In this document: piece after piece, positions 12,754 to 45,586 of the stretch
Numbering within the stretch: the first letter of the stretch is position 1
Layout of the letters: every line of letters starts with the position of its first letter
Virus record (IMG/VR): IMGVR_UViG_3300028454_000679
Length of the DNA stretch: 64,000 bases
Direction: 5' to 3' (one strand)
DNA from: a virus
Lineage: Duplodnaviria > Heunggongvirae > Uroviricota > Caudoviricetes
Position numbers and translations under genes: made by a program
The notes under the pieces: generated by a model
The model's input: the letters and a program-made list of their open reading frames with translations, nothing else
What the model was told of the DNA's origin: nothing
Databases searched by the model: none

Positions 12754-13902
12754 ATGAGTAAAGAACCCACAACGTATGAGTATACATCGCTTGCTAAAGA
12801 CAACCTACTAATAAGTGCAAAGTATAGAGCAACACTACTAGAGCTTCGCGTGACCTATGCCTGCTTATTCATGATACAAAACAATAGCTATACAGAGAAA
12901 CCAGACGGCATCTATGTAAGCATGAAAGCAGGTGAACTCCGTGAGCTGATTGGTGCAAACTCGGGCTCTTTCTACAAGAGTCTTCTTCCTGTTGCTCAAA
13001 GTATGACAGCAAGGAGTCTGGGTATGGTAAACCCGGAGAATGAAGAGTTTGACTTTATTAGCCTAATAACTGAAGCCAAGTACAAAGATAGCGTGTTAAC
13101 AGTAGTCTTTAACAATAAGCTAAAGAAACATCTTGTTGCACTAAAGATGGACTATACAACAATACCAAAGCAGTACATAATGAAATTGAACTCAAATTAT
13201 GCTTTTAGGCTTTACGAGATACTGAAGAAGTCATGTTTTTATAGTAAAAGTTACAATGGGGAACGCAATGGCTATTTCCTCATACGACTCTCATTAGCAG
13301 AACTAAAATTGGATTTAGGTGTTGTAAATTCTGCACTAGACTCAGTTCAAAAAGAGCTACGTGGGTCCAAGACACCAAATTATGAAAAAGCTGTACAAGC
13401 CTCATCTGAAAAACTCTATGAGGACTGGTCATCATTCAAACGCTCATGTTTGGACAAGCCAATACGTGAGATAAACCAGAAAACTGACATACACGTTGAG
13501 TATGAAACTCATAGAGCCGGTCTAGGTGGTAAAGTGCATGCAGTGTCATTCACAGTGTATGTAAAAGAACTAGACAAGTCAAATACAACTGAAACCACCG
13601 GACTGACTGATCAAGAGAAGTTTTTATTTCACATGGAAGTTTACAAACTATTTGAGCAATACAAATTATCAATAGACTTCATTCAAAAACTCTCTGAGGC
13701 ATCAGACTACACCCTAGCCACACTCAAGGAAGTTGAAAAGGTTCTTAGAGCCTCTAATGGTGTGGCAAACATAGAGGGATGGCTTCTCAGTGCAGTAAAA
13801 GAGAGGTACTCACTACACCCTGCACAATCCGTAAACTTCAGGCAACGCGAGTATGATTACGATGAACTTGAAAGACGAATGCTTAACCGGAAAAGAACCT
13901 AA
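12754..13902 (+). CDS. replication initiator protein, Rep_3-like (iteron-type plasmid Rep)
   Basis: N-terminus YTSLAKDNLLISAKYRATLLELRVTYACLFMIQNN resembles the Rep_3/RepB motif (ARY.LS..E.RL.L..I..I). Iterons lie immediately upstream. Confidence 0.5.
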   Translation: MSKEPTTYEYTSLAKDNLLISAKYRATLLELRVTYACLFMIQNNSYTEKPDGIYVSMKAGELRELIGANSGSFYKSLLPVAQSMTARSLGMVNPENEEFDFISLITEAKYKDSVLTVVFNNKLKKHLVALKMDYTTIPKQYIMKLNSNYAFRLYEILKKSCFYSKSYNGERNGYFLIRLSLAELKLDLGVVNSALDSVQKELRGSKTPNYEKAVQASSEKLYEDWSSFKRSCLDKPIREINQKTDIHVEYETHRAGLGGKVHAVSFTVYVKELDKSNTTETTGLTDQEKFLFHMEVYKLFEQYKLSIDFIQKLSEASDYTLATLKEVEKVLRASNGVANIEGWLLSAVKERYSLHPAQSVNFRQREYDYDELERRMLNRKRT

Positions 13903-14002: not shown

Positions 14003-15076
14003 CTAAAGAGGCTCCACTCGAAGCTTTTTACACCTTGACTTAGAATAGAGTTTTACCTTGTATATGTCTTTTACAGTTGATGGCACTGTCACACTGTAAA
14101 CAGTTTTATTTGGTTTAACGCTCTCACGAGAGAAATGGAAAACATCACCTTGGGGCGTTACAAGTTTAGCAGTTGCAGTGGAATCCTTACACTCAAACCT
14201 AAAAGTGACAGGGTCTTCTGAAGGATGCTTCACACGAAACTTTTTTGTGTGACCATTCCTAAACTGTCCCTTTACAGAGACTTTCTCCACAGTTACACCT
14301 TTAAATGGATAAGTAACTGTTACATCCCCTGGCAAGTAGTTCACGCGGAACACTGCCTTACTCTTTCCCACACACTCAGGGTAAATTGTGTACCCTGAGC
14401 TATCCAAAGTAATACAAGGATATTCTAAATCTGAAACAAATCTTACGGTAACTATGGCACGCTTAACGGCACCGCACTCTTTAACAACTCTAACTCTTTG
14501 CTCCTCACTAGAACACGGAATAAACTCTCCATCCTGGCTGTAATCAAAGTAAGGCTCTGTGCAGTAAACTGGGCTTGAGAGCGTTTCAGTAAAACTAGTA
14601 CCCCTAACAGTCCTAGTGAACTTCTTACCATTCTTACGCTTGAAAACAACAGTGCAGCTTTTACCATCCTTTGCTGGATAAAAGCCATAGGGCACATCCT
14701 GCAAGGTCACCTTACTGCCATTCACACTGTAAAGGTAAGCACTCTTCCCATTGTACTTGCACAGTAATTTACCGCTCGTTGTCAACCTAACTCTAAATGG
14801 TAGGACATCAAAGTACATAAATGCTGGTGTGTAGTTTAGCGGTTCTACAGTATTCGAACACTTCACATCACCTGTTGTCTTTGGACTAGGTTGTGGAGCT
14901 GCTGCAGGAGTGGAGTTTTGAGAAACAGACCCCGAGCACCCTGAGAAAAACATACACACCAACAGAGTTAGAGCTAAAACACGTTTATTTACGACCAAAC
15001 CGATGTTACGGCAACCCAAGATGACCCATTGTAGTATTTTAACACACCTGGTGTGTAAGAAGATGTGTCTACCCAC
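14003..15076 (-). CDS. secreted lipoprotein, beta-rich (Ig-like) hypothetical
   Basis: Lipobox-like LLVCMFFSGC near the N-terminus; rich in T/V/K beta-strand pattern. The true start is probably internal to the listed ORF. Confidence 0.35.
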   Translation of the reverse strand: MGRHIFLHTRCVKILQWVILGCRNIGLVVNKRVLALTLLVCMFFSGCSGSVSQNSTPAAAPQPSPKTTGDVKCSNTVEPLNYTPAFMYFDVLPFRVRLTTSGKLLCKYNGKSAYLYSVNGSKVTLQDVPYGFYPAKDGKSCTVVFKRKNGKKFTRTVRGTSFTETLSSPVYCTEPYFDYSQDGEFIPCSSEEQRVRVVKECGAVKRAIVTVRFVSDLEYPCITLDSSGYTIYPECVGKSKAVFRVNYLPGDVTVTYPFKGVTVEKVSVKGQFRNGHTKKFRVKHPSEDPVTFRFECKDSTATAKLVTPQGDVFHFSRESVKPNKTVYSVTVPSTVKDIYKVKLYSKSRCKKLRVEPL

Positions 15077-15252
15077 AACTGGGATACATTAGTAGGCGCT
15101 GTATTACCAACAACGCAAGGTCCACCCGTTTGGTTCGTTGTAACCTTAGGTGCAGCCTTTACAGAATCAGCCAGGGCTGCTACTGCAAAAAAGGACGCCA
15201 AAAATCCGTAAATGCCTTTTTGAAGAAATTCTTTTCTAGACATACCTGACAT
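14989..15252 (-). CDS. small secreted protein with twin-arginine-like (RK) signal peptide; candidate Tat substrate
   Basis: Start refined to MSGMSRKEFLQKGIYGFLASFFAVAALADSVKA-AP. This gives S-R-K-x-F-L-x-K, a hydrophobic core and an AxA cleavage site. GGAGGAA RBS. Begins 2 nt after the tatC stop. Confidence 0.4.
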   Translation of the reverse strand: MSGMSRKEFLQKGIYGFLASFFAVAALADSVKAAPKVTTNQTGGPCVVGNTAPTNVSQLWVDTSSYTPGVLKYYNGSSWVAVTSVWS

Positions 15253-15253
15253 A

Positions 15254-15991
15254 CTAACATTCCTCCGAACTACGTTTTTCAATAAATGAACAAATAAAAA
15301 TACTAAACTGATACAGGAGTACAATAGGCACTGCAACTGCAATCTGGCTCACAACATCAGGCGGTGTTATAATTGCAGCTAATACAAAAGCAAGTACAAT
15401 TACAACCTTTCGTACCTTTCGTAAAAATGCTGTATGGACAAGACCTATCTTGCACAACACAACATTCACTAAAGGTATCTCACAGATAATACCTATTGCT
15501 AATCCCAATCCCACAAACAATCCCACAAAACTGTCCACACTAACAAGTGGTGTGACACCAAAGGCGGAATACCCCGTACCAAGTAAGAATTGTATGGTAA
15601 ATGGGATGAGCCACCTAAATGATGCATACATACCTGCCACAAAGACTCCATACCCAATGAAGGTGAAAAAGAACACCTTAAGCACTTTTACATTAAAAGC
15701 AGGTAAGACAAAAGCCAATACATTGTAAATGAGCAATGGTAAAGTGAGTAGGAAACTCAGAGTGAGACTGAGCTTTATCTCCTGCATAAATAGTGACTGT
15801 GGTGTTAAATACATAAATCTGAATCCAGCATTGTCCCCCACAAGCAGTATGCTTTGTATAACGGTCTTCCTGAACACGTAGGCTATCATAAACACAGCTA
15901 TAAGGAACACTGCGCAGATAAACAGCCTATGAGTTAGCTCCATCAGATGTTCCTGAGGATTCATCTGATTTACTGGTTTCTTCCTCTTCAT
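15254..15991 (-). CDS. tatC: Sec-independent protein translocase TatC
   Basis: Six predicted TM segments. N-terminal LMELTHRL motif and C-terminal ITPPDVVSQIAVAVPIVLLYQFSIF, which matches the TatC TPPDxxSQ..LA.P...LYE motif. Confidence 0.8.
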   Translation of the reverse strand: MKRKKPVNQMNPQEHLMELTHRLFICAVFLIAVFMIAYVFRKTVIQSILLVGDNAGFRFMYLTPQSLFMQEIKLSLTLSFLLTLPLLIYNVLAFVLPAFNVKVLKVFFFTFIGYGVFVAGMYASFRWLIPFTIQFLLGTGYSAFGVTPLVSVDSFVGLFVGLGLAIGIICEIPLVNVVLCKIGLVHTAFLRKVRKVVIVLAFVLAAIITPPDVVSQIAVAVPIVLLYQFSIFICSFIEKRSSEEC

Positions 15992-16121
15992 TTTCCTTCA
16001 AAGCCTTTCTGAAAATCTTTAAAGAGTCTCCTGCACCCTTTGCTAACTTAGGTAATTGAGTTGCCCCTCCTAAAAAGACTATAATTAACAAAACAATTAA
16101 CAATTCTGTTGTACTAACCAT
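15927..16121 (-). CDS. tatA: TatA/E-family translocase subunit
   Basis: Start refined to MVSTTELLIVLLIIVFLGGATQLPKLAKGAGDSLKIFRKAL: TM helix, Gly hinge and amphipathic helix. Acidic S/T-rich tail. Confidence 0.65.
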   Translation of the reverse strand: MVSTTELLIVLLIIVFLGGATQLPKLAKGAGDSLKIFRKALKENEEEETSKSDESSGTSDGANS

Positions 16122-16359
16122 TACTATCCTCCTTATTTGCAGTGTCCTCAGTGGTGGATACTGCATCTGCTAAATCCTGTTTGACCTCGTTAAGCGTATC
16201 CTTGACTTCATTTATAGGTACAGAGAGGGTCTCTGCACCCTCTCTGTAAGCTTTCATAGCTTTACCCAACTTCTCTGCGAACTGAGCTATCTGCTCTGGA
16301 GAGAAGAATATATGACAGCAAACAAGGATAACTATTAATTCTGGAACTCCAATACTCAT
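16114..16359 (-). CDS. tatB: second TatA/TatB-family subunit
   Basis: MSIGVPELIVILVCCHIFFSPEQIAQFAEKLGKAMKAYREG has TatA/B topology (TM, hinge FSP, amphipathic helix) with a longer charged tail. Confidence 0.55.
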   Translation of the reverse strand: MSIGVPELIVILVCCHIFFSPEQIAQFAEKLGKAMKAYREGAETLSVPINEVKDTLNEVKQDLADAVSTTEDTANKEDSNG

Positions 16360-16368
16360 ATGTCACCT

Positions 16369-19185
16369 CTACTGTCCTTGTGGTTTTTGATCATGTGTAG
16401 GTGTTCCGCCGGAACCAGAGCCAGTACCTGTGCCTGAGCTAGAGCTAGAGCTAGAGCCAGAGTCTGAGCTAGAGCTAGAGCCTCCACCATCATGAACCAC
16501 GCCGTCTTCGTATGTTCCTCCTGTTTCATGACCACCATTAGAGTTGATGCTTGACCATGCAGGGAAAGTTACATCAGATGTACTCGGAGTAGCATCCTGT
16601 AAACTATTAGCACTACCACTTACGGACAGAGTTATTGCATCAAGAATGATTTTTTGACTGTCAAATCGATTCTCAGTAGGCACTAGTGAAACTGTAAGTG
16701 TGGAACCAGAACCTGACACAGTCGCAATAGCTGGGATAGACGCAGCACCAAAAGTGAGGTCCACATTGGTTAAATCATCGTAAGTTATACCATACTGTTT
16801 TAAATCAATAGTAACTTTACTGGGGTTTACGACAGTAGGAGTTAGAGTATGATTGAAGCCACTAGTAACAACTATGGTTTGGGAATACTTATTCAACTGT
16901 GCAATGTAAGTACTGATAGCAGTCCAGATTGCCTTAGAGTCTTCATTCAAAGAAGTTGTAGCATCCATTAAAACATCCTGTGTATCAGTAACATACTTCA
17001 CAAGCTTCTGTGTGGCTTGTGCTAAATTTGTTTCATACTTGCTGGACAACTCTGTGTTTGCTTGATTCAGTTCAGTAACAGCATCAGACAGCTGACTATT
17101 AATTTCCGTAATAGAAGCATTGATGGTATTTAATTCTTCAGTTGTACTCTTGCTAAAGGTATCAAACTCAGAGTAGTTATGTTCAATTTTATTATTAAGT
17201 GCTACATCATCCTCATGACGCTTGGTAGCTTCTGAAGAGATTGATGTATTCAACTCATTCTTCGTCTGCTCCCTCTTTTCCTCTGTATCCTTTGCAAGGT
17301 CCTGTAAAGAGGTGGTAAGCTGTGTCTGAAGTTTCTCACGCTCTTGAGCATTCAGAGTGTCACTGTTTGCTAAAGTAGTAGTTAACTCATTGTAGATACG
17401 CTCACGCTCACTTTGACTTAAGCTGTTGCTCTCATTAATAGTATTTGTTAAAGAATTGAGTAATTCGGTTCTCTCCTGCTCATTAGTCTGTCTATCATCA
17501 GAGAGAGCAGTAATCAGCTCATTGTAGATTCTTTCGCGCTCATCAGCAGATGCTTTATCAAGACTCTGCAACTCATTAGTTAAATCCTGATACTTTGCTG
17601 CCTGCTCCTGTTCCAACTGAGCTACAGACTGGTTCAAAGCTTCCTGCAAATGAGTTTGCTCTTCCTTAGAAGCATTGCTTAAGTTAGAGATAGCTGTAGA
17701 AAGCTCGTCATGCATTTTAGCACGCTCTTCTTTGGAAACGTTACTTAAATTAGTGACAGATTCTGCCAGCTGTGACTGTAACTTCTCACGCTCTGCTTTA
17801 GAAGAGTCACCTAAATTCTCAATGGTCTTGGAAAGGTCGGAGTACATGGACGCTCTTTGGTCAGCCGTCTGTCCATTGAGTTCAGTGATAGATGACATAA
17901 TCTCACGATACATAGCATCCTTTGAAGCCTCAGATGTTTTATCCATACTGTTGACAAGATTCATCATTTCACTGTACTGTGAACTCAACTTGTCAACATC
18001 CTTACTACTTGCTCCATCACCATTGTTGCTATGGCTAACACCATTAATCTGTTCAACAATAGTATTGATTTTTTGAGAGACTTGGGAATCCTCTTTCGCA
18101 ACTTCCTGTTTCAGTCTCTCTAAAGCTGCACTTGTTCCCTTATTCCCTTCCTCAGCCTTAGCTACCTCTGCGTTGAGCTTGTCTGATAACTGATTGATAG
18201 AGTTAGAAACACTCGTCACTGAATTACTTGCGCTATTCAGTGATGTTTTTACGGAGTTGATTTCTTTATTTAGACTCTCATCAACCTGACCTAAAGCGGA
18301 GAGTTTAGCTTCTAAATCCCCAATCTTCTGAGAGTAATCCTTGATCATTGTGGCATAGGATTCCTTAACTTCAGTTACGCTCTTCACGATGTTATTTACT
18401 GTTTCGTTGTATTCGGTCTTTGAAAGATTGTTAGCAGATGACAGTAAACCGTCAAGTCCATTGGAACCATCAGAACCGTTGGAGCCGCTGGAGCCGCTGG
18501 AACCATCAGAACCATTTGAGCCATTGGAACCGTCCTTACCATCTTTACCCTTTACGAAGGAAATGGATTTCAAGATAGTTTCAGAAGACTTAAAGAACTT
18601 CTCTACCTGCTCAGGTGACAACTTTTCTAAATCAGGAGCTACACCATCACTAGTAGTCTTCTCCAACTCTGCAACCTGCTTTGCTAAAGTCACGATAGAA
18701 TCACGATTCTCATTCATTTGTGATTGAATAGCGGAGTAATCGTAAACCTGTGTGTATCCTGCTGCTTTCTCTTCTAGTGCCTCCGGCTTAATATCTGCTA
18801 CAGCATCAGATGCAACATTGGCAAGGTAACCCTTCGCCATTGCGGTAAGCTTACCATTTTCAAATTGAATTAAACCTTGTCTGTTCAATTCATCAACTTT
18901 GCCTTTTATGGCTTGTTTAATGGCTTGCTTATCAGATTCACTCAAAGAAACACCATTAGACTCCATAGTATCAATAGCTTTTTCATAAAGCCAGTCCACA
19001 ATAGAGTTTAAGTCTCCTTCCTTGATTTCATCCAAATTGTTGTAAGCTTCCATCTGCATTGCATCTGACAGATTTAGTGCTGACACAACTTTAGAGTTGT
19101 GGAACATTATAACTGTCATAAGAGCTAATGCACAAACCAAGGCAACACTAATTCCCGCATACAAAATCCTTTGCTTTTTTCGCAT
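16369..19185 (-). CDS. large membrane-anchored coiled-coil protein with collagen-like G-S-N repeats and S/G-rich tail
   Basis: 938 aa. N-terminal TM, extensive heptad-like E/K/L/Q/S segments, GSNGSNGSDGSSGSSGSNGSDGSNGLDG, and a C-terminal GGGSSSSSDSGSSSSSSSGTGTG. Internal and antisense ORFs are artifacts. Confidence 0.5.
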   Translation of the reverse strand: MRKKQRILYAGISVALVCALALMTVIMFHNSKVVSALNLSDAMQMEAYNNLDEIKEGDLNSIVDWLYEKAIDTMESNGVSLSESDKQAIKQAIKGKVDELNRQGLIQFENGKLTAMAKGYLANVASDAVADIKPEALEEKAAGYTQVYDYSAIQSQMNENRDSIVTLAKQVAELEKTTSDGVAPDLEKLSPEQVEKFFKSSETILKSISFVKGKDGKDGSNGSNGSDGSSGSSGSNGSDGSNGLDGLLSSANNLSKTEYNETVNNIVKSVTEVKESYATMIKDYSQKIGDLEAKLSALGQVDESLNKEINSVKTSLNSASNSVTSVSNSINQLSDKLNAEVAKAEEGNKGTSAALERLKQEVAKEDSQVSQKINTIVEQINGVSHSNNGDGASSKDVDKLSSQYSEMMNLVNSMDKTSEASKDAMYREIMSSITELNGQTADQRASMYSDLSKTIENLGDSSKAEREKLQSQLAESVTNLSNVSKEERAKMHDELSTAISNLSNASKEEQTHLQEALNQSVAQLEQEQAAKYQDLTNELQSLDKASADERERIYNELITALSDDRQTNEQERTELLNSLTNTINESNSLSQSERERIYNELTTTLANSDTLNAQEREKLQTQLTTSLQDLAKDTEEKREQTKNELNTSISSEATKRHEDDVALNNKIEHNYSEFDTFSKSTTEELNTINASITEINSQLSDAVTELNQANTELSSKYETNLAQATQKLVKYVTDTQDVLMDATTSLNEDSKAIWTAISTYIAQLNKYSQTIVVTSGFNHTLTPTVVNPSKVTIDLKQYGITYDDLTNVDLTFGAASIPAIATVSGSGSTLTVSLVPTENRFDSQKIILDAITLSVSGSANSLQDATPSTSDVTFPAWSSINSNGGHETGGTYEDGVVHDGGGSSSSSDSGSSSSSSSGTGTGSGSGGTPTHDQKPQGQ

Positions 19186-24825: not shown

Positions 24826-25362
24826 TTACTCCCATTTTTCTATATCATTATTCTTTGCAGCTTTTCTGGTCGTTTTCTTCATGCTTGTTTTTAAAGCAGC
24901 TTTAGGTGAAGTAGTGGCTTCTGTTAGTTCACTTGCTCCCTCTTCGTCCTGTCCTCCTTCGCCACCTATTTGTCTGCTTATTTTTTGAAACATCTCCTGC
25001 TCATCCTTTACTTCATCCATAAGCTCCGGATGTGCTTCAAGGAAAGCCTGTCTTTTTTCAAAAGTATTCACCATCTCCTGTGACATCAGCTGATACTGAT
25101 GACGAACCACGTTGCAGATTTTGCAAGGTTCTGCTCCCTGCTCCATTCTGTCATTTACGCATATAGACTGCCTTGGACAGTCCGTCTGCCTTCTGTTGTA
25201 TCTGATGGTAACAATATCTGAATTGATAGGGCTGTCTATTTCTGTGACTGCAACTTCAGGAATAACATATGTTTTATTCCCGCAATCGTTACAGATAATA
25301 AGCATAGCTCCTTCTGAATGTAGATTTTCGCCTCCGCATTTTTGACATCTGATTTTCGTCAT
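24826..25362 (-). CDS. zinc-ribbon protein, paralog of 40623..41069
   Basis: MTKIRCQKCGGENLHSEGAMLIICNDCGNKTYVIPE has CxxC...CxxC, followed by EPCKICNVV. About 55% identical to the second copy 15 kb away. Confidence 0.45.
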   Translation of the reverse strand: MTKIRCQKCGGENLHSEGAMLIICNDCGNKTYVIPEVAVTEIDSPINSDIVTIRYNRRQTDCPRQSICVNDRMEQGAEPCKICNVVRHQYQLMSQEMVNTFEKRQAFLEAHPELMDEVKDEQEMFQKISRQIGGEGGQDEEGASELTEATTSPKAALKTSMKKTTRKAAKNNDIEKWE

Positions 25363-31217: not shown

Positions 31218-32744
31218 TTACTCCTCTGTAAAATCCTGTGGGTTACACTCCTGCTGTTTAGTTTCCTGAGTCTCAGACTCCTGCTGAACAGTTGTTACAC
31301 TTAACCCATTCACATTAACGTTTTTATTTACCTTAGCATCATAGGTACTTGCCTTCAAAATTTCTCTCATGTCTACACCTGTCGCCTCTGTCATGGTGTC
31401 AAATACCTGATGCATAATTTGTGGTGCAATACCGGAAATCTGGGATGCACCTCCATCAGAGGACGAACCGCCATAAATGTTGATCTTGTCAATCTGAGAA
31501 ATCGGCTGTGCAATTTCTTTTGCCATATCTGGTAAAATACGAATCATCATTTCCGCTACTGCTGCTCCATTGTACTTTTTGTAAGCTTCTGCCTTCTTAT
31601 CCATTGCTTCGGCTTCCGCAATACCTTTGGCACGGATGGCATTTGCTTCTGCTTCACCTTTCGCCTTGATGGCTTCGGCTTCAGCAAGACCTTTAGTACG
31701 AATTGCTTCGGCTTCTTGTTTCTGCCGGTAAAGAACAGCTTCTGCTTCTTTCTGCTCCTGAACAAGCTTTGCTTCTGCTTCTTTTTCTGCTTTATACTTT
31801 TCAGCATCTGCAGTACGTTCAATCTGTGCAGCCAGTTCCTGCTGACGTACAAGCACTTCCTTCTGTTTTAACTCTGCTTCACGTTCTGCCTTGGCAATCT
31901 GAGCATTGACGGTTTCGGCTTCAATTGCCTTGTTTTGAATCTGCTCCTGAATACGGAATGCTGCTTCAGCCTCTGCACGCTTGGTATCCTCTATAACCTT
32001 TAATTCCGACTGCTTGATTGAAAGTTCATTCTGTTTTTCAGCGATCTGCTTATCAGCTTCCACTCTGGCATCATTCGCTTCCCGCTCTGCCTGTGCTTTT
32101 GCAACTTCTACATCACGGTCTGCATTTGCTTTAGCAATAGATGCATCTTTCTGAATTTGTGCCATGTTATCCATACCTAAAGCGTTAATTAAATCCTGCT
32201 CGTCGGTGATAGTCTGGATATTACAAGAGATAATCTGGATACCAAGATTATCCATATCCATTTGAGCCTTAGACTGAACCTCATCACCAAACTTTTTACG
32301 GTCATTACACAGCTCTCTTAACTTAATTGTTCCAACGATTTCTCTCATATTACCCTGAAGAGAATCTGTAATCGTTCTCACAATCTGCTCTTCCCCCATG
32401 TTGAGGAAGTTCTTCATAGCAACCTGAATACCTTCAGGGTCATTCTTAATGCGGATTTTTGCAACGGCATCAATATTGACACCTATAAAATCTTCCGTAG
32501 GGATAAAACCATTTGTTTTAATATCAACGGAAATCTGTCTTAATAGCAATTTGTCAATTCTTTCTAAAAATGGAATGCGAATACCTGCACGACCAACGAG
32601 AATCTTTGGATTCTTGCGGAAACCAGAGATTATGTACGCAATATCTGGTGGTGCCTTTACATACCCCATTGCACAAATAAGCAAAACTACAACTACGACT
32701 ACCGCTGTTGCAATAAACTGCGGTGTAAGAATTGTTTCTAACAT
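31218..32744 (-). CDS. flotillin-like SPFH/band-7 protein (FloA/YqiK type)
   Basis: N-terminal TM, an SPFH core (IISGFRKNPKILVGRAGIRIPFLERI...DAVAKIRIKND), then a ~200-aa Ala/Glu/Lys-rich coiled coil (AEAEAIRAKG repeats). Confidence 0.8.
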   Translation of the reverse strand: MLETILTPQFIATAVVVVVVLLICAMGYVKAPPDIAYIISGFRKNPKILVGRAGIRIPFLERIDKLLLRQISVDIKTNGFIPTEDFIGVNIDAVAKIRIKNDPEGIQVAMKNFLNMGEEQIVRTITDSLQGNMREIVGTIKLRELCNDRKKFGDEVQSKAQMDMDNLGIQIISCNIQTITDEQDLINALGMDNMAQIQKDASIAKANADRDVEVAKAQAEREANDARVEADKQIAEKQNELSIKQSELKVIEDTKRAEAEAAFRIQEQIQNKAIEAETVNAQIAKAEREAELKQKEVLVRQQELAAQIERTADAEKYKAEKEAEAKLVQEQKEAEAVLYRQKQEAEAIRTKGLAEAEAIKAKGEAEANAIRAKGIAEAEAMDKKAEAYKKYNGAAVAEMMIRILPDMAKEIAQPISQIDKINIYGGSSSDGGASQISGIAPQIMHQVFDTMTEATGVDMREILKASTYDAKVNKNVNVNGLSVTTVQQESETQETKQQECNPQDFTEE

Positions 32745-33419: not shown

Positions 33420-34214
33420 CTAATTGAATACACAGCTGGTCATACTGAACACACGTTGGAATGCCTCCCAGTTCTCATCATGTATACCAGGCTTAATAGC
33501 GTAAACACATGTTATACCACTGTGTCTAAATGTATCCTTAAAAATCTGTGCAACAGTTGTAGGGTCTTGCTTAAACACGCCACACCCAAATGCACCTAGA
33601 ACAGCATACTGTACACCCTCTGTAAGTAAAACGTCCCGAATAAACTCCACACGCTTAACAAGCACCTCTTTGTTCCTACGTACAAGTGCATCCATAGGTT
33701 GCCCTAACTTATCCGCACACTTCGTGATGGCGTAAAAGTTAGGAGATGCACAGGTGAGTACATCAACACGTGCCATTTCTGAACCCCGCTTAAAGGTGAC
33801 ACCTTTAGAGTAAATGCACCTATCCTCATAGAATCCGTAGTGCCTATGAGTTTTATTGTATTCATAAAACTCTGACATATCAGTAAGGTAATGGTACAAA
33901 TTGCTCTCGTGGCACAGCGACTCCTCTTGTGCACAACTTCCCTCCAAAAACTTACCACCAGGGTTAGTAAAGGAAGCAAAGTTAAGTGCACAGACTTTTG
34001 CCCCTGTTGCTGCCGCCTTCATAATACAAGATACAGTGTCCTCGTGAACAACAGTCTGTGACGTGCTGATAAAAGAAGTCTGTCTAGTTGGTGGATACAA
34101 CTTACGGTCGTAGACCACACTAGAGCCTCTCGGCCATTCTTTCGTTTCCTGTATCCACAACTTTGCATGTGCTGCCCGCTCCTTACGGTCTCCCCAATAA
34201 ACTTGATTTGACAT
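33420..34214 (-). CDS. bacterial-type poly(ADP-ribose) glycohydrolase-like macrodomain protein (DUF2263/TIGR02452-like)
   Basis: NPGGKFLEGSCAQEESL matches the bacterial PARG signature GGG-X6-8-QEE. VLGAFGCGVFKQDP matches the macrodomain diphosphate-binding loop. Confidence 0.6.
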   Translation of the reverse strand: MSNQVYWGDRKERAAHAKLWIQETKEWPRGSSVVYDRKLYPPTRQTSFISTSQTVVHEDTVSCIMKAAATGAKVCALNFASFTNPGGKFLEGSCAQEESLCHESNLYHYLTDMSEFYEYNKTHRHYGFYEDRCIYSKGVTFKRGSEMARVDVLTCASPNFYAITKCADKLGQPMDALVRRNKEVLVKRVEFIRDVLLTEGVQYAVLGAFGCGVFKQDPTTVAQIFKDTFRHSGITCVYAIKPGIHDENWEAFQRVFSMTSCVFN

Positions 34215-34884: not shown

Positions 34885-35658
34885 TTAAGGTATTCGACCG
34901 ATTGTATCAACACACACTGCAGTTACAGTAAAGCGTTGGTTGCCACCATAACACGTTGACAAGGTTACCCATTGCTCAAATGGTGTCTCTGGAACCTTAA
35001 CACCTTCTGGAGCTAAGAACTCGTCTCGAAAGTTGTTAAAGTCTACTGAATCCTCGAATTGAGTTTGGTAGAGTTTAGAATTCTTAGTGGTTTCCTCAAA
35101 TTTCACGATTTGAAATCTATAAATTTGAGTATTGGTGAATACCTGAAAAAACTTATGCTTTTTTAGATACCCTTTCTTCTGCTGATAAAACTTTAGTTTG
35201 CCAAACATAGACAAATCCTTCATATTGTGGCCATAAAGGATAGAATGCTTGTCAGTGAAGAATGGGGAATTGGTTGACTCCAGAATAATAGACCCTGAGT
35301 TGTTCTCTGTACCATTGTAAAGCTTGTACAGATACTTTGTATTACTTCTTGAATGTACAACAGGATAACTAATATCAATGTCCTCAAAGAATACCCAACC
35401 AACGACATCTGGATTAGTCTCCTGTAATGATTCAAGGTCCACAGTAATAAGCTTATTCCAGGGGGTGTAAACTTTTGGCTGTTCAGTGGATTCTAAAGCC
35501 CTCTGAGGTGCAACTGGTGTTACAACCTCTTTTACAAGCGTGTCATAAAACTTGGCACTTTCTTGATACTGAACAAACCCTAAAAACACTTTGAACCCTG
35601 TCAACCCTACGAGAATGCCTAAAACGGCGCACAGAAGATAACTTACTGTTTTTCGCAT
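34885..35658 (-). CDS. membrane-anchored hypothetical protein
   Basis: N-terminal TM; 257 aa. Confidence 0.35.
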   Translation of the reverse strand: MRKTVSYLLCAVLGILVGLTGFKVFLGFVQYQESAKFYDTLVKEVVTPVAPQRALESTEQPKVYTPWNKLITVDLESLQETNPDVVGWVFFEDIDISYPVVHSRSNTKYLYKLYNGTENNSGSIILESTNSPFFTDKHSILYGHNMKDLSMFGKLKFYQQKKGYLKKHKFFQVFTNTQIYRFQIVKFEETTKNSKLYQTQFEDSVDFNNFRDEFLAPEGVKVPETPFEQWVTLSTCYGGNQRFTVTAVCVDTIGRIP

Positions 35659-37360: not shown

Positions 37361-37876
37361 CTAATTCTTAACAACTCTGAAGTTCTTACCCAGTGCATTA
37401 CGCACACGTTCAACCTCACTCGGGCTAAAATCAATCTCGTCCTGTGCAAAACGTCTTTCTAACTCTTCTAGTTTCGCCTTAGAGTCTCTAGACACATACC
37501 GACTACGTCTAACATTCTCAGGAGCTTCAACAAATACTGCCTCAACATTCTCCGCACCAAAGTGTTCAATAGCAGCTAAAACGCCGTTAATATCTAATAC
37601 ACCTACGTAATCAGCTTGACTAACCTTCTGGCTGCAAGACCCATAGAACCATTCACCCTCTGTAGTGCTATGCTTGCGATACTCAAAGATATCACCAGTC
37701 TCAACACGCTTCAAAAACTCTTTCTCTGAAAGAAACCAGTAATCAACACCATCAACTTCTCCAGGTCTTGGAGGACGTGTTGTGCAAGTAACAAAATTTC
37801 TCCAACCTTTAGCAACATCTTGCTTAGTGAGATAGTCCTTGCCTGAAGCAGATTTACCGAAATAAATTCTAAGCAT
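37361..37876 (-). CDS. gmk: guanylate kinase-like nucleoside monophosphate kinase
   Basis: P-loop GKSASGKD, plus TTRPPRPGEVDGVDYWFLSEKEF (the guanylate kinase signature TTR.PR.GE.dG.dY.F). Confidence 0.7.
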   Translation of the reverse strand: MLRIYFGKSASGKDYLTKQDVAKGWRNFVTCTTRPPRPGEVDGVDYWFLSEKEFLKRVETGDIFEYRKHSTTEGEWFYGSCSQKVSQADYVGVLDINGVLAAIEHFGAENVEAVFVEAPENVRRSRYVSRDSKAKLEELERRFAQDEIDFSPSEVERVRNALGKNFRVVKN

Positions 37877-38205
37877 TAAACACCTCCGAAATTAACTGCT
37901 GTTGAACCAAACTGTGGTTGTGCCTGTGGTGTTGTAAACTGTTCCTCACTATCAACATCACCAAAGTCGTACTCCTCTAAACCCTCATCAGGTGCCGGAA
38001 CAGACTCTTGGGCAGTCTCACTATAGTATGGCTGCGCATTGGTTGTAAGTGATGTCTGGGAAGGAGTGGATTCAATAAAAGCTTCGAGAATACTCTTTCC
38101 TGCTGATGCTGTAAAAGTGACACCACAACCATTACACGTAGCTGCTTCATTACCATTAAAAGTAATTACATGTGACCCACAAAATGGGCAATTTTTAATC
38201 CTCAT
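37876..38205 (-). CDS. zinc-ribbon hypothetical protein
   Basis: CPFCGSHV...CNGCG. Confidence 0.35.
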   Translation of the reverse strand: MRIKNCPFCGSHVITFNGNEAATCNGCGVTFTASAGKSILEAFIESTPSQTSLTTNAQPYYSETAQESVPAPDEGLEEYDFGDVDSEEQFTTPQAQPQFGSTAVNFGGV

Positions 38206-40622: not shown

Positions 40623-41069
40623 TCACTCCCAGTTTCCCTGATCTTCTTTTTGCTGTGTTTTCTTTGAACAACGTTTTGTTTTCTTAGGACATTCCTGTTG
40701 CTCCTGCTGAGCCTCTTCTAATTCCTGTAACTCAGGATGCTGTGCCAAGTACAGCTCACGACGTTCATTTACATTGATAAGTTCTCTATTGAGAACATCA
40801 AGCTTATGTTGAACAACCTTGCACACTTTGCATGGTTCTGCATCTGGGAACATCTTGTCATTCAGACACAAACCCTTACGAGGTTGCTCTGTTAAACTGC
40901 GATCATACTCAATTGTTACAAGATTCCCAGAGATTGGATTATTCACCCGTACTATTGAGCACTCTGGAATCATAAAAGTTTTAGCACCGCAGCAGTCACA
41001 GACTACTAGGGTGGCTCCTTCAGTATGCAACTCTTCTCCGCCACACACTTGACATCTAATTTTTGTCAT
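40623..41069 (-). CDS. zinc-ribbon protein, paralog of 24826..25362
   Basis: Start refined to MTKIRCQVCGGEELHTEGATLVVCDCCGAKTFMIPE, with a GGAGGT RBS. Located directly downstream of the Cys-rich peptide genes. Confidence 0.45.
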   Translation of the reverse strand: MTKIRCQVCGGEELHTEGATLVVCDCCGAKTFMIPECSIVRVNNPISGNLVTIEYDRSLTEQPRKGLCLNDKMFPDAEPCKVCKVVQHKLDVLNRELINVNERRELYLAQHPELQELEEAQQEQQECPKKTKRCSKKTQQKEDQGNWE

Positions 41070-41092
41070 AAGATTACCTCCATTAAAAATTA

Positions 41093-41530
41093 TTATGCAG
41101 TTGTTGCTTGTACAGATGATGCTAAGCAACCAGATTTGCAACCTGAGCTGCAGCTAGAGTTGCAACCACCACAAGAGGAACACCCTGAGCAAGAGGTGCA
41201 GCCACCGGTGCAACCTGAACAACCACCAGTGCAATCAGCTCTACAAGAAGCAGTGCAATATGTGCAACCGTTTTCGCAACCGCCTGTGCACTGCCAGTCA
41301 CACCTGCCTCCACAGCCACCACAGCGTACATCACAGGCAGCACAATCAAACCAGCAGCGATTTCCACAACCATCGCATTCTGCATGAACATCCGTACTTA
41401 TATTAACTAATGCTGCTAGTCCTGCTGCAGTTGCTACCACTTCCTTCAGTTTGCTCTTTCTACTTGTGTCGTTCTGCTCACTAAAGTTATCATTAGAGGG
41501 AGTCTTATCTTTTTCTTCCATATAAAACAC
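41093..41530 (-). CDS. Cys-rich secreted precursor-like protein 1 (CxxC/CxC repeats)
   Basis: Signal-like KLKEVVATAAGLAALVNISTDVHA-E, then 42 Cys in ~95 aa. C-terminal [29 protein letters not shown]. Confidence 0.5.
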   Translation of the reverse strand: MFYMEEKDKTPSNDNFSEQNDTSRKSKLKEVVATAAGLAALVNISTDVHAECDGCGNRCWFDCAACDVRCGGCGGRCDWQCTGGCENGCTYCTASCRADCTGGCSGCTGGCTSCSGCSSCGGCNSSCSSGCKSGCLASSVQATTA

Positions 41531-41581
41531 CTTCCTATTTTTATTATAGTAATACCTGATATAATAGGTTTGATACTGTAA

Positions 41582-42214
41582 CTATGCAGCCGTTATAGAT
41601 ACAGAGGAGGCTAAGCAACCAGATTTGCAACCACTTCCACAGCTAGTATTACATCCACCGCAAGAGGAGCAACCTGTGCAACCGGTACAACCTGAACAAG
41701 AAGTGCAACCTGAGCAAGAGGTACAGTCACCAGTGCAACTACCAGTACAATCATCTCTACACCTACCATTGCAACTGTAATCGCAACCACCACAACTCCT
41801 GCCGCACCCATCAGAACATACAGACCCACAGCCACTGCATCCATCACAGCTGGTACATCCACTATCACAACCACCGCAGCCACCGCAGCCACCACAGCCG
41901 CCGCATCCGCCGCAGCTACCACCACAGCCACTGCAACCGTCACAGCTGGTACATCCACTGGCACATACAGAGCAGCCTCCGCAGCCATCGCAACCACCAC
42001 AGCCTACTCCGCAGCTACCACCACAGTTAGAGCCACAACCTACTGCACATGCTTGATTACATGCTGCATTTACTTTTGTATCAACTGACACAACAGCCGC
42101 TATGCCTGCCGCTATCAGTGCTGCTTTTTTTAGTTTATTTTCACCACTCAGTTTAAAATTCTCTTGTTGGTCAGTTTGTAAATCGAATTGGGATTCCTTT
42201 GACATAATAATCAC
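41582..42214 (-). CDS. Cys-rich secreted precursor-like protein 2
   Basis: Signal-like [25 protein letters not shown], long (CGG)n / CxxC repeats, and the same C-terminal motif ...[23 protein letters not shown]. Confidence 0.5.
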
Positions 42215-42235
42215 CCTTTCTAACTTTTGATTTCT

Positions 42236-43612
42236 TTAGTGTGATTTAATGCATATTTCCCCTTCATTAACTTTTCCGCCCATAGAAAGTGTAAGCTCCC
42301 TCAGTGCTTCGTAATCCTTCTCACCAATAAGTGGTACAGCCCATTCTCTCGGACACCAGAGGTCAAGCACTTCTGTACGACCTGTTTCTTTGTAATAATG
42401 GTTCCAATAGTAAACTATGGCAAGTGAGCGCACCTTTTGAACATCACAGATAAATGTGCACCGTTTGTCAACAGTTCCGTTAATCTGATAATTGTAAGCA
42501 GAACACCAAGAGCATCCTTTTGCTACGGGGCAGTAAAAGCATTCATCTGTTGATTGAGATCTCCTCGTAATGGCACTCATACATGTGATACAGTCCTGTT
42601 CACATTTCTTCTGCGCAATTCCTGTCCAAACATCACCAATTATAATAGGTGGTTGGTCCAAACCGAGCGATGATTCCATATACCGTAAACATGGAAACAG
42701 CTTACCATCAGGATCGCACGCCAACATCCTCGCATTACCGCCGCACCAATTATCATTGTCTGTTTCCTCCATAGGCATACCCCAAGTGTTATCCAAGAAA
42801 GAAATTGCATAATCCTCTTGGTCAAATTCGCTTTTACGAATCCAATCTGAAAACTCCTTACACTGCTCCCAGACTACCCTAGCATGCTCTGGTTTCCAAA
42901 CATCCTCGAAAACCTCATTGGCATTTATATCTTCATACCCATCGTAAATCATCTGTTTGAGACAATCTGCAAAGTACTTAATATTTTCCGGTGCCATAGT
43001 GATTTTGGAACCCATATAGTATCCTCTAGCCATCCAATCCTGTGCTGCATCATGAGCCAAATCGTATGATGGTCGACCGTCAGGGAACCTTCGACAAGCA
43101 TCATGGAGTTCTTTTGTTCCATCCACCGTGACGGAAAAAGAAATATTACGGAAGTTCTTTTGTAAAAATGCCTGAACCTTGGGGTCTCTGTATGCAACAC
43201 CATTGGAGCAGATAGAAATAGAAAACTTTTCTGCCCAAGGATGATTCATCTCAATGGCTCTTTTCCTAAAATAGTCCACTGTTTTATCAATAAGAGCTAT
43301 CTCAAGGAAAGGCTCCCCTCCAATAAACTCCAGAATAATTGCTGGTGCATCTCCAAGATACTCCCTAAAACCATTTTGACCAGTCAAAACATCATCAACT
43401 AATCTAAATGCAACCTCTTCCGACATTCGTCTTGTACCCTTATTTGTTTGGTAACAATATGAGCATGCAAGTGAACAAGCATCTGTAACTTGCCAGGTTA
43501 CAGATCTTGCCATATTTGCTATACCTCTTTCTGTATCGCCACCCAACTCTGGGTACATTCTTGCAATCCAATCCTGAAATTGAATCAATTGTTTCCTTTT
43601 CTTTGTTGCCAT
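42236..43612 (-). CDS. radical SAM / SPASM-domain peptide-modifying enzyme
   Basis: CSLACSYC (Cx3Cx2C). C-terminal auxiliary cluster motifs CGGNARMLACDPDGKLFPC and CFYCPVAKGCSWC. Start refined to MATKKRKQ. Confidence 0.8.
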   Translation of the reverse strand: MATKKRKQLIQFQDWIARMYPELGGDTERGIANMARSVTWQVTDACSLACSYCYQTNKGTRRMSEEVAFRLVDDVLTGQNGFREYLGDAPAIILEFIGGEPFLEIALIDKTVDYFRKRAIEMNHPWAEKFSISICSNGVAYRDPKVQAFLQKNFRNISFSVTVDGTKELHDACRRFPDGRPSYDLAHDAAQDWMARGYYMGSKITMAPENIKYFADCLKQMIYDGYEDINANEVFEDVWKPEHARVVWEQCKEFSDWIRKSEFDQEDYAISFLDNTWGMPMEETDNDNWCGGNARMLACDPDGKLFPCLRYMESSLGLDQPPIIIGDVWTGIAQKKCEQDCITCMSAITRRSQSTDECFYCPVAKGCSWCSAYNYQINGTVDKRCTFICDVQKVRSLAIVYYWNHYYKETGRTEVLDLWCPREWAVPLIGEKDYEALRELTLSMGGKVNEGEICIKSH

Positions 43613-43623
43613 AATTTTTCCTT

Positions 43624-44028
43624 TCAGTTTACTGCATAAGAAGATGCCATACATCCTGTCTTGCATCCCCCACCACAGCTAGTATTACATCCACCACAGG
43701 AAGAACATCCGGAGCAACCTGTGCAGCCACCAGTACAGCCACTACCGCATCCGCCTCCACATCCTGTGCAGTCACCGCAGCCAGTTCCACAGTTGTCCCA
43801 GCAACCCAGACTACAGTTTTCCATACAGCGGTGGCCACAGCCATCACAGCCTGGGTAATGAATGGTACCACCACCTGAGTTTCCTCCACCACCAGTACCA
43901 CCACCGGATTCACCAGTACCAGGGCTACTACGACCACCGGCACACAGCTGTGTGCACCCACTACCGCACCCACAACCTCCAGGACCGACGACAGTTCCAG
44001 CCTGTGTATCAAACTTTAGCTGATACAA
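43624..44028 (-). CDS. Cys-rich precursor-like protein 3 (no obvious signal peptide)
   Basis: G/S-rich N-terminal half, then CxxC repeats and the shared C-terminus [26 protein letters not shown]. Confidence 0.45.
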
Positions 44029-44214
44029 TGATGCTAAAGCTGCTGCGGAAAAGACTATATTCTCTAACTTATCATTAAATTTCTTACCACCACCATCATC
44101 TTTTAACGTATACCCTCCAGATTATTCCACAATCATCTTGACTAGTTACAAACTCAACCCAAATTCATAAATTATAATTTAAATGAGGATGTCACACATC
44201 CTGCTGAGCACCCT

Positions 44215-44790
44215 CTAATTCTTTGCGCCGCTGTTACACCCTGTACCACAGGAAGCAGAACACCCAGTGCAGCCATTACACTGCCCTATACATGAACCCA
44301 CGCACAAACCTGTGCAAGCTCCGCCGCAATGTGTTACTTCTGTTTTATTGTTATTATTAACCTTACCTCCAGAACCGCCTGGTAAATCGTAGGCTACACC
44401 GTTGTAAGTTCCCTTAAATCCACCTCTGTTAGAAGCAGTATCAGCATCAGCATCCAACTGACTGCAAATACTGTTGATATCAGCAGCGTTAAATCCAGGT
44501 GGGATCTTTCCGCCTTGATGTGTATAGTTAGAACCTAACTTATTCTCAAAGGCAAACCCGGTGTTATTGTCAGCACCTTTTACAATCTGTAAAAGGCAGT
44601 CAATGGTTGCTTTACCTACCTGTGCAGTAATGGGCTGTCCTTTCTGAGGAGTAGGTGATGGTAATGCATACGCTGAATTAGTTGCATACTGATTGACCTT
44701 ACCAGGACCGGCTCCTCTTTTGTTTAAGGTTGTTGTAATTCTCGCTTTCATGGCAGCTAACTCCCCAGGTGTCATTGCCATATAAATCAC
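44215..44790 (-). CDS. hypothetical protein with Cys-rich C-terminal tail (related to the precursor family)
   Basis: The C-terminal HCGGACTGLCVGSCIGQCNGCTGCSASCGTGCNSG follows an unrelated ~150-aa domain. Confidence 0.4.
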   Translation of the reverse strand: MIYMAMTPGELAAMKARITTTLNKRGAGPGKVNQYATNSAYALPSPTPQKGQPITAQVGKATIDCLLQIVKGADNNTGFAFENKLGSNYTHQGGKIPPGFNAADINSICSQLDADADTASNRGGFKGTYNGVAYDLPGGSGGKVNNNNKTEVTHCGGACTGLCVGSCIGQCNGCTGCSASCGTGCNSGAKN

Positions 44791-44796
44791 CCCTTC

Positions 44797-45126
44797 CTAA
44801 ACTTCGGTTTGTTGTAAGTATTGATAGACACAGATTTGATTGTCATCTGTAAATTCATACTTTTCTGGAACTCTCAGTTCGCCAGAATCTAAATTCTCAG
44901 TGAACAAGTTAACAGCAACACCTAATTGAAAAATATTATTTTGTACACATGCATCTACAGCCCTATCCATTAGTCGCCTGAAAATATCACTGTCTAATGC
45001 ATCTGCACTATCAAGATGCTTTGATAGGAAAAAAGAAACATTTGAGCATGCTTTCGTGAACTCAAAAAATCCTCTATCAAGCACATATTTGTAACTCTCT
45101 GGAACATCTATTACATTCTCAACCAT
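44797..45126 (-). CDS. hypothetical protein
   Basis: 109-aa ORF. Confidence 0.3.
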   Translation of the reverse strand: MVENVIDVPESYKYVLDRGFFEFTKACSNVSFFLSKHLDSADALDSDIFRRLMDRAVDACVQNNIFQLGVAVNLFTENLDSGELRVPEKYEFTDDNQICVYQYLQQTEV

Positions 45127-45142
45127 ACTATCACCTTTACAC

Positions 45143-45445
45143 TTAGTAAGTAACAGTTAACTCGTTGGTACCATAACTCAGATTCCAACCTTTAACCTTG
45201 CTCTGTTTGTCCTCCGGAATATACTGCATAACCATTGCATCCTTTGCCTGTTCCCAAGCAAGCTTATCTGCAAACATGCTCTCCTGGAATGTTGCAAAAA
45301 TTGGGCTTGACAATGCTTTGTCATCTCTATCAAGCTGATGCTCAGTTAAAAACTCTTTTACTATCTGTCGTTTGGTTTCGTACTTCATCTGCTTGAGCTG
45401 AATGTCTGCCACTATCTCTTCATTAACCTTAATTACTTCGTTCAT
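45143..45445 (-). CDS. hypothetical protein
   Basis: 100-aa ORF. Confidence 0.3.
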   Translation of the reverse strand: MNEVIKVNEEIVADIQLKQMKYETKRQIVKEFLTEHQLDRDDKALSSPIFATFQESMFADKLAWEQAKDAMVMQYIPEDKQSKVKGWNLSYGTNELTVTY

Positions 45446-45542: not shown

Positions 45543-45573
45543 AAAGTAAAACAGCAGGGATTTAACCCTGCTG
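45543..45573 (-). terminator. intrinsic terminator (minus strand) after the MCP gene
   Basis: CAGCAGGG-atttaa-CCCTGCTG followed by TTTTACTTT on the minus strand. Confidence 0.5.
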
Positions 45574-45586
45574 TCGCTTTATCGCA

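Follow-up and report, generated by a model that had tools for sequence, protein, structure and literature searches.

We analyzed a gene cassette for a radical S-adenosylmethionine (SAM) maturase and its cysteine-rich neighbors in a 64-kb stretch of DNA (IMG/VR virus record IMGVR_UViG_3300028454_000679), hereafter the window. All coordinates are window positions, L-numbers indicate related loci, and P-numbers indicate homologous proteins. The gene of the radical SAM/SPASM maturase (42236..43612) lies on the minus strand together with four Cys-rich open reading frames (ORFs), which stand on both sides of it as the sequence-only reading of this DNA had described: protein A (41093..41521, 142 aa), protein B (41582..42205, 207 aa), protein C (43624..44028, 134 aa from a weak TTG start), and protein D (44215..44781, 188 aa). 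Before the starts were revised, A, B, and D spanned 41093-41530, 41582-42214, and 44215-44790; the better starts are at 41521, 42205, and 44781. The enzyme ORF spans 42236-43666, and the ATG at 43612, which has an AAGGA ribosome-binding site, gives a protein of 458 aa. The stop codon of C is located 9 nt ahead of this start. The module had been delimited at 41093-44790, but it reaches upstream to 45445 and includes two small conserved proteins on the same strand, small protein 2 (44797..45126, 109 aa) and small protein 1 (45143..45445, 100 aa), the helical-hairpin partner of the enzyme that had been missed. A second part of the module, also on the minus strand, is located at 14989-19185 and carries genes of the twin-arginine translocation (Tat) pathway. 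The MCP gene and the module are separated by a terminator-like hairpin (45550..45575, minus strand; 6 GC pairs in a 10-bp stem), where the transcription unit probably has its upstream limit; promoter and terminator scans of the region gave results at chance level, and the count of terminator-like sites was not above chance. The system is genuine and was correctly spotted from the sequence alone, and the window represents a new, Tat-linked, multi-paralog variant of it.

The enzyme matched TIGR04115 ("radical SAM peptide maturase, CXXX-repeat target family") with 419.8 bits against a cutoff of 350 (E=1e-125) over profile positions 1-359 of 359, and an identical public protein exists (P0001). In an alignment of 17 enzyme homologs, the Cys residues of the radical SAM motif CSLACSYC (Cx3Cx2C; C46/C50/C53) were invariant, as were C290, C308, C358, C361, C367, C370, and C389, which make up the full SPASM set with the spacing C290..G303x4C308, C358x2C361x5C367x3C370, and C389. 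The motif and SPASM cysteines reported earlier were thus borne out, also by an alignment with the SCIFF maturase CteB (5wgg), the only solved relative (E=7.5e-16), which extended through the SPASM region. This alignment begins at CteB residue 95, and approximately 33 residues precede the radical SAM core of the window enzyme versus 94 in CteB; therefore, the window enzyme is without the N-terminal substrate-recognition domain of CteB, that is, the RiPP (peptide synthesized on ribosomes and modified post-translationally) recognition element (RRE). The next-best models were all of thioether-forming maturases and scored below their own cutoffs (PapB, 151.7 against 340; SCIFF, 102.1 against 425; QhpD, 76 bits against 453). 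The anaerobic sulfatase maturase (anSME) model reached 49.8 bits, and a non-peptide radical SAM family, which the sequence-only reading had kept in view, was excluded. Judging from these profile and alignment scores, the enzyme is a peptide- or protein-modifying radical SAM-SPASM maturase and not a sulfatase-type or cofactor enzyme. Some radical SAM homologs of 600-811 aa (P0012, P0047, P0103) contain inteins (PF14528, PF13403).

Because NCBIfam holds TIGR04115 along with the target models TIGR04114 and TIGR04117, this enzyme family and CXXX-repeat proteins are already catalogued as partners at the database level. The literature searched contained no experimental or other study of the TIGR04115 enzyme family.

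A consists of a leader (..SRKSKLKEVVATAAGLAALV..VHA/E, the slash standing at the leader end), 77 aa of CxxC/CxxxC repeats, and a conserved tail; B consists of a leader that is followed by Ala, 141 aa of repeats with 44 Cys, and the tail; C consists of Cys repeats, a Gly-rich linker, and the tail. The tail, CSSCGGCN[ST]SC..GCK[ST]GC[LM]ASS, is common to the three proteins, as had been noticed. Four precursor-like proteins had been proposed; A, B, and C are indeed repeat proteins, but D is of a different kind, in which a short Cys tail follows a conserved N-terminal domain. The Cys content had been put at up to about 45%, which is too high: it is 29-30% in the repeat segments, with a maximum of 7 per 20 residues. 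Of the spacings named at the same time, CxxC is frequent, whereas CxC occurs just once, and the other spacing is CxxxC (A, 14; B, 19; C, 13; D, 6). Of approximately 8900 Cys spacings counted, nearly all are of 3 or 4 residues (2584 and 6062, respectively), and G, S, T, N, and D abound in the spacers. The lengths of 134-207 aa are atypically large compared with classical RiPP precursors, in line with the sequence-only reading.

The repeat region raised the question of the coding frame. The locus had been described as a GC-rich tgc/ggc repeat island; its GC content is 0.46-0.48 versus approximately 0.40 in the rest of the window, but a description as a simple repeat does not apply. For Cys, TGC and TGT occur at similar frequency, all four Gly codons are in use, and Ser is encoded by both AGY and TCN codons. 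TRF detected only short, imperfect arrays, every period of which was a multiple of 3, and B contains an internal 96-nt duplication. We compared differences at the three codon positions in the Cys frame, which were 83/56/175 for window and L001 paralogs in their conserved tails and 88/65/244 for five L003 paralogs. The ratios of synonymous to non-synonymous changes in these sets were 99:113 and 207:85 in the Cys frame and 18:189, 24:185, 30:273, and 42:251 in the other two frames. Because the third-position bias and frequent synonymous changes are found there only, the Cys frame is the frame under purifying selection and is genuinely coding, and the alternate-frame ORFs are artefacts, as had been assumed. 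The contrary explanation, that the Cys ORFs arose by chance from a DNA repeat, with the Ala/Val-rich frames, or no frame, as the real genes, has on its side that the public gene callers took the alternate frame for A, B, and C. It is refuted by the codon-position and codon-usage tests, and the repeats are fused in frame to a conserved N-terminal domain in 143 ORFs of other loci, which leaves this explanation a negligible probability. The public calls on identical contigs (ENA, JGI), which place A, B, and C in an Ala/Val-rich alternate frame (41122-41385, 41611-41988, and 43629-43973), are wrong, and the real Cys-repeat proteins are consequently missing from protein databases.

A and B have a conserved N-terminal leader in common, with a basic KLKK-type segment, an Ala-rich hydrophobic stretch, and a VxA end. 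Upstream of C, at 44064..44118 on the minus strand, a GGAGGG Shine-Dalgarno sequence and ATG-ATG open an 11-codon ORF in the +1 frame, inside which the slippery heptamer A_AAT_TTA is located (44082-44076). A -1 slip at this candidate site would enter the frame of C and would add a leader similar to those of A and B, with Gly as the first residue after it. The arrangement of Shine-Dalgarno sequence, ATG-ATG, and heptamer is identical in four independent contigs, and the region could represent programmed frameshifting or a decayed start.

Homologs of the enzyme number more than 3000. An alignment-based query retrieved 177 matches in GTDB species-representative genomes, nearly all in Clostridia with a few in Treponemataceae, Slackia, Brevibacillus, and Desulfosporosinus; a scan of the GTDB genomes with the single enzyme protein gave no matches. 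A further 502 matches were found in IMG/VR viral contigs. The comparison drew on 170 related loci, and 164 loci, 80 of them viral, came from these searches. A Cys-dense ORF is present on the strand of the radical SAM gene in 156 of the 164, a target N-terminal domain (N-domain) of approximately 120 aa in 141, and a homolog of the small partner protein in 140, including all 80 viral loci. The conserved cassette consists of a protein with the N-domain and CxxC/CxxxC repeats, a helical-hairpin protein of approximately 100 aa, and the radical SAM enzyme. The canonical target has the helical N-domain of approximately 120 aa, the junction SSCRGAC[TS]GLCxGxC, 100-400 aa of repeats, and a strictly CxxxC-spaced terminal cap. 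Targets range from 134 to 550 aa, with globular domains and up to 105 Cys. Homologs are named as the CXXX-repeat target family in the JGI annotation, and, with 37 bits, a related protein encoded in L080 lies above the TIGR04114 cutoff.

D belongs to this canonical type. Its Cys-free part gave E=2e-13 with zero bias, the whole protein gave E=8.8e-27 against the A2 profile, and the N-domain is followed by the junction HCGGACTGLCVGSCIGQCNGCTGC and the short Cys tail. An AlphaFold model of D has helices at residues 5-21, 53-67, and 99-110, with pLDDT of 73-87 in the first 60 residues. A fold search with this model returned uncharacterised viral homologs only, and Pfam, NCBIfam, and PHROGs had no match for A to D or the small proteins. 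The conserved element of the targets had been placed at the C-terminus rather than the N-terminus; the C-terminal tail is conserved but is not the only such element, given the shared leader of A and B and the wide distribution of the N-domain of D. In the phage loci L007, L028, and L146, two proteins, a short one with the N-domain and another with only the Cys part, take the place of the single target, and D and C of the window look like this arrangement.

Other target architectures were also observed. In one group of 30-60-kb phages (L091-L130, approximately 20 loci; e.g., L100 3996-5645), the Cys-repeat protein has an extra C-terminal domain of approximately 190 aa without family match, which may be a receptor-binding domain. 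In L062, L067, L069, L073, L074, L080, and L084, the architecture is reversed, with the Cys repeats first and an N-domain-like C-terminus of approximately 115 aa; these genes are downstream of the enzyme and occur in Desulfosporosinus, Brevibacillus, and Vallitalea. PF27846 is precomputed on P0141 and approximately 60 other N-domain homologs, and was not found in the literature. A second, different radical SAM gene is located near the cassette in L124 (11522-12739), a 230-kb viral contig, and in L001 (4240-4917), the closest relative of the window; L124 also encodes a Cys/Asp-rich 'CDCD' repeat protein (12764-13366).

Small protein 1, the partner of the radical SAM enzyme, consists of a beta strand, a long helical hairpin, and a beta hairpin in its AlphaFold model (pLDDT 97.9), and the predicted fold does not resemble the winged helix of PqqD. 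Small protein 2 is a paralog of the same family, is 43% identical to its L001 ortholog (E=2e-29; E=7e-14 to L002), and the same position is occupied in L172 and L173. The family forms 96 representative clusters at 50% identity, with some tandem fusions of approximately 215 aa. In approximately 44 of the top 120 enzyme homologs, the partner domain is fused to the N-terminus of the enzyme (571-594 aa). These observations suggest that the partner is a substrate-handling adaptor of the enzyme, which would act in place of an RRE. TIGR04114 was considered as a model of the partner protein and rejected, since it describes the target repeat.

The fusion of the partner to the enzyme, the conserved junction motif, and the co-occurrence of Cys proteins with the maturase in conserved gene order also bear on the function of the repeats. 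With 30% Cys and dense CxxC, the repeat segments would suit metal- or Fe-S-binding proteins of the metallothionein type that are not substrates of the enzyme; this association with a maturase makes such a role highly improbable.

In phages, the cassette sits in the tail or baseplate module. This was the case in 7 of the 7 viral loci tested, where the neighbors included minor tail (E=6e-80), baseplate wedge (7e-67), tail-fibre, and tail proteins. The motif [ST]AP.[ND]T..LWIDT..G..KYYNG[ST].W......VWG (LWxDT motif) closes the ORF immediately upstream of the Cys gene in 51 loci, and in 45 of these it is the C-terminus of a long protein. In the loci checked, e.g., L085 and L100, the long LWxDT proteins match tail or virion-structural families.

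This tail-module setting argues against a classical RiPP or bacteriocin system, in which the Cys-rich precursors would be cleaved into small cross-linked antimicrobial peptides. The name of the enzyme family, peptide maturase, fits such a system, and so does a family member on Anaerococcus prevotii pAPRE01 that is 33% identical to the window enzyme and adjoins a gene for a 56-aa Cys-containing peptide, ABC transporters, and LanKC. On the other hand, no protease or ABC exporter was seen among the neighbors scanned, the targets are long proteins with globular domains and as many Cys as given above, the enzyme has no RRE, and the partner is a helical hairpin instead of a winged helix. We regard this explanation as quite unlikely. 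The pAPRE01 enzyme (L170, 44-8361) has 728 aa and the same family annotation, and its RiPP setting means that the family spans both peptide and protein targets.

The second part of the module in the window encodes a Tat system. TatC (15254..15991, 245 aa) matches Aquifex TatC (4b4a) over its full length with E=6.6e-27 and is homologous to the TatC genes adjoining the cassette in L002, L010, and L040. Two TatA-like genes (16114-16359 and 15927-16166), identified by eye, each encode an N-terminal transmembrane helix, a Gly hinge, and an amphipathic helix (..LLIIVFLGGATQLPKLAKGAGDSLKIFRKAL..). Starting 1 nt after the TatC stop codon, a small protein predicted to be exported (14989..15252) has a Tat-type signal (MSGMSRKEFLQKG..AAL..VKA/AP) and a mature part with just the LWxDT motif at the C-terminus (LWVDT..KYYNGSSW..VWS). 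Its equivalents adjoin Cys-rich genes in L002, L003, L010, L040, and L172. For comparison with the Tat motif, S/T-R-R-x-F-L-K ahead of a weakly hydrophobic h-region, the corresponding sequence is SRKEFLQK in the small LWxDT protein and TRKEFLK, SRLDFLK, or TRADFLK in its relatives. Upstream of the TatA-like genes, a coiled-coil, collagen-like protein of 938 aa (16369..19185) with an N-terminal transmembrane or signal segment is 23% identical over 424 aa to an L003/L004 protein located upstream of Cys genes, and also matches L010; like the Tat genes, it is 26 kb from the cassette, which its relatives adjoin in other loci. Directly downstream of the Tat-signal protein, a 357-aa ORF (14003-15076) begins with a lipobox-like segment (..FFSGC) and has no family match.

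Leader-bearing targets were found only in the clade of the window (the window, L001, L003/L004, L010, L172, and L173). This clade comprises elements that are plasmid-like or large in another way and that may or may not show a Tat gene. TatC is located 4-8 kb from the radical SAM gene in L002, L010, L040, L171, L172, and L173, and is absent from all viral loci. A leader-bearing Cys-rich protein of L172 has a faint match to the surface-protein repeat Flg_new, and its neighboring proteins match this repeat clearly. The sequence-only reading had assigned Sec-type signal peptides to two proteins; the leaders of A and B with their VxA end stand, but the Sec assignment is uncertain. Given their long n-regions and Ala-rich h-regions, and a TatAC encoded on the element itself, the Tat route is no less likely. 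In Firmicutes, dedicated TatAC pairs such as B. subtilis TatAdCd-PhoD likewise consist of a minimal TatA/TatC encoded beside the presumed substrate. The window system differs in that its motif has a single Arg ([ST]R[KLA][DE]F[LV]K) and that the proposed cargo is a radical SAM-modified protein.

The window is part of an element of approximately 234.3 kb. This element was assembled three times with different start points (L165-L167), which indicates a circular or terminally redundant molecule. The Rep3 initiator (12754-13902) has its closest counterparts in Butyrivibrio and Roseburia megaplasmids of 186-243 kb, the relative L171 carries TraC/TraG-like conjugation genes, and no virion hallmark was matched among the window ORFs of at least 300 aa. 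We favor a megaplasmid over a jumbo phage. If the element were a jumbo phage, A to D would be virion proteins, such as tail fibres or decoration, matured by the radical SAM enzyme. Several observations would fit: some of the viral-contig matches lie on contigs of 180-254 kb, the cassette of phages is in the tail module, some enzyme homologs contain inteins, the assembly is circularly permuted, and the element has three tRNAs, a thymidylate synthase, and a MoxR-type ATPase approximately 34% identical to the versions of phages G and PA5oct. Apart from the replication and conjugation genes and the missing virion hallmark, however, the contig was not among the matches of the IMG/VR search (best match 55%) even though its source metagenomes come from JGI, and the signal-like leaders and dedicated Tat system point to export and not to virion assembly. 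A jumbo phage is therefore unlikely, though less so than the RiPP or metal-binding explanations. A megablast search of 24 kb of the window against phages gave no match.

Taken together, we consider it moderately probable that the window holds a plasmid-borne variant of the CXXX-repeat target radical SAM systems, whose enzyme cross-links the repeat proteins in the cytoplasm before their export. Working with one or two helical-hairpin partners instead of an RRE domain, the radical SAM/SPASM enzyme would modify the CxxC/CxxxC repeats of A, B, C, and D in the cytoplasm. The most likely chemistry would be thioether cross-links joining Cys and side chains inside the repeat, which would turn the segment into a stapled, rod-like structure resistant to proteases. 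The modified proteins would then leave the cell, A, B, and possibly C by their own signal-like leaders. Tat is proposed as the route for such rigid proteins because it moves folded cargo. D has no leader and may hitchhike on the small Tat-signal LWxDT protein through the TatA/TatC of the element, which is proposed because the LWxDT motif is a genomic neighbor of the Cys genes in the 51 loci mentioned above. Outside the cell, the proteins probably form or decorate a surface fibre. The sequence-only reading had inferred a RiPP-like or cross-linked secreted system; a cross-linked secreted protein fits the linked Tat system, whereas the pairing itself is not new.

Several points weigh against this scheme. 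The cross-link chemistry is something we infer and did not observe, and many Cys have no Asp or Glu nearby, so that links of the PapB type cannot involve all of them. A to D did not reach the target models TIGR04114, which describes an 18-aa Cys-rich repeat, and TIGR04117 (cutoffs 20 and 50), with no match at E<=0.01 (D gave E=0.07 on TIGR04117). The search with the partner fold returned generic helical hairpins only, and in the model of D the pLDDT averages only 61, with the Cys tail at low confidence and unmodelled. A twin arginine is absent from the leaders of both A (SRKSKLK) and B (no Arg), and Sec export or a role of the leaders other than export is possible. The Tat genes of the window are located 26 kb from the cassette. 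The MoxR-type ATPase, the tRNAs, and the thymidylate synthase count against the megaplasmid part.

Comparison with known systems helps to place the proposed one. Its nearest likeness is the NCBIfam/TIGRFAMs CXXX-repeat system, known from databases, because the window enzyme passes TIGR04115 at full length and adjoins CxxxC-type targets. Apart from targets that miss the existing models, the window adds leader-bearing paralogs, two partner proteins, and the Tat link. The ranthipeptide thioether maturases PapB (freyrasin) and CteB (SCIFF) are likewise radical SAM-SPASM enzymes acting on Cys-rich repeats and are the best-scoring characterised relatives, but the scores are far under the cutoffs, their substrates are peptides of approximately 45 aa versus the proteins of 134-550 aa in the window family, and the window enzyme has no N-terminal RRE. 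QhpD is a SPASM radical SAM enzyme that installs Cys-Asp/Glu thioethers in the structural polypeptide QhpC in the cytoplasm, with export afterwards. QhpC, the gamma subunit of quinohemoprotein amine dehydrogenase, differs from the window targets as a single short four-Cys substrate without repeats that uses another exporter.

In HXS defence (HxsA to HxsD), radical SAM enzymes mature a periplasmic HxS-repeat effector, which is processed and exported, and a small protein is involved (PMC13128918). By analogy with this outline, and since the window locus is on a mobile element, the exported repeat proteins could serve as an anti-phage or superinfection-exclusion barrier. HXS differs in having His-x-Ser repeats instead of Cys repeats, two radical SAM enzymes, and an occurrence in Proteobacteria. 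The HxsB model scored 66.5 bits against a cutoff of 370, PADLOC matched only pVip models over the generic radical SAM core (best E=6e-10), and most relatives are phage-encoded and inside tail modules. Such a barrier appears very unlikely.

The preferred scheme of cytoplasmic cross-linking and export can be extended to an evolutionary one, which we put forward tentatively as possible and not as probable. A phage tail-fibre module may have been captured by Lachnospiraceae megaplasmids and may have become an exported surface fibre. With the helical-hairpin adaptor, whole proteins would be stapled into rigid rods, and a private TatAC using a single-arginine signal would export them folded, partly by LWxDT hitchhiking. 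By this chemistry, phages would obtain tail fibres hardened for a gut that is anaerobic and rich in proteases.

The neighbors of the cassette in the window are the MCP, a PilZ protein, and zinc-ribbon proteins, with no tail or baseplate genes among them. The MCP and zinc-ribbon genes are present as had been pointed out, but no conserved link of these genes to the cassette was seen in other loci. The zinc-ribbon proteins are repeated in the window (40623-41141, 24826-25362, and 37876-38205), and the first two match one L001 ORF with 50% and 75% identity, respectively. The window also encodes a sortase (34885-35658), a PARG-like protein (33420-34214), a guanylate kinase (37361-37876), and a flotillin (31218-32744). 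A to D contain no LPXTG motif; the sortase may nevertheless be linked to surface display.

Radical SAM peptide maturases have been studied almost wholly on short peptides, whereas here a large and widespread family appears to act on whole structural proteins. Most targets of the family are in phage tail-fibre modules, and its members occur across many gut Clostridia. Gene callers systematically choose the wrong frame in Cys repeats, so that the targets are absent from many annotations. If the proposed scheme is true, the family would provide an adaptor protein that replaces the RRE, a new cargo type for Tat export, and a means of cross-linking virions and cell surfaces at the protein scale in anaerobes, which have no disulfides at their disposal.

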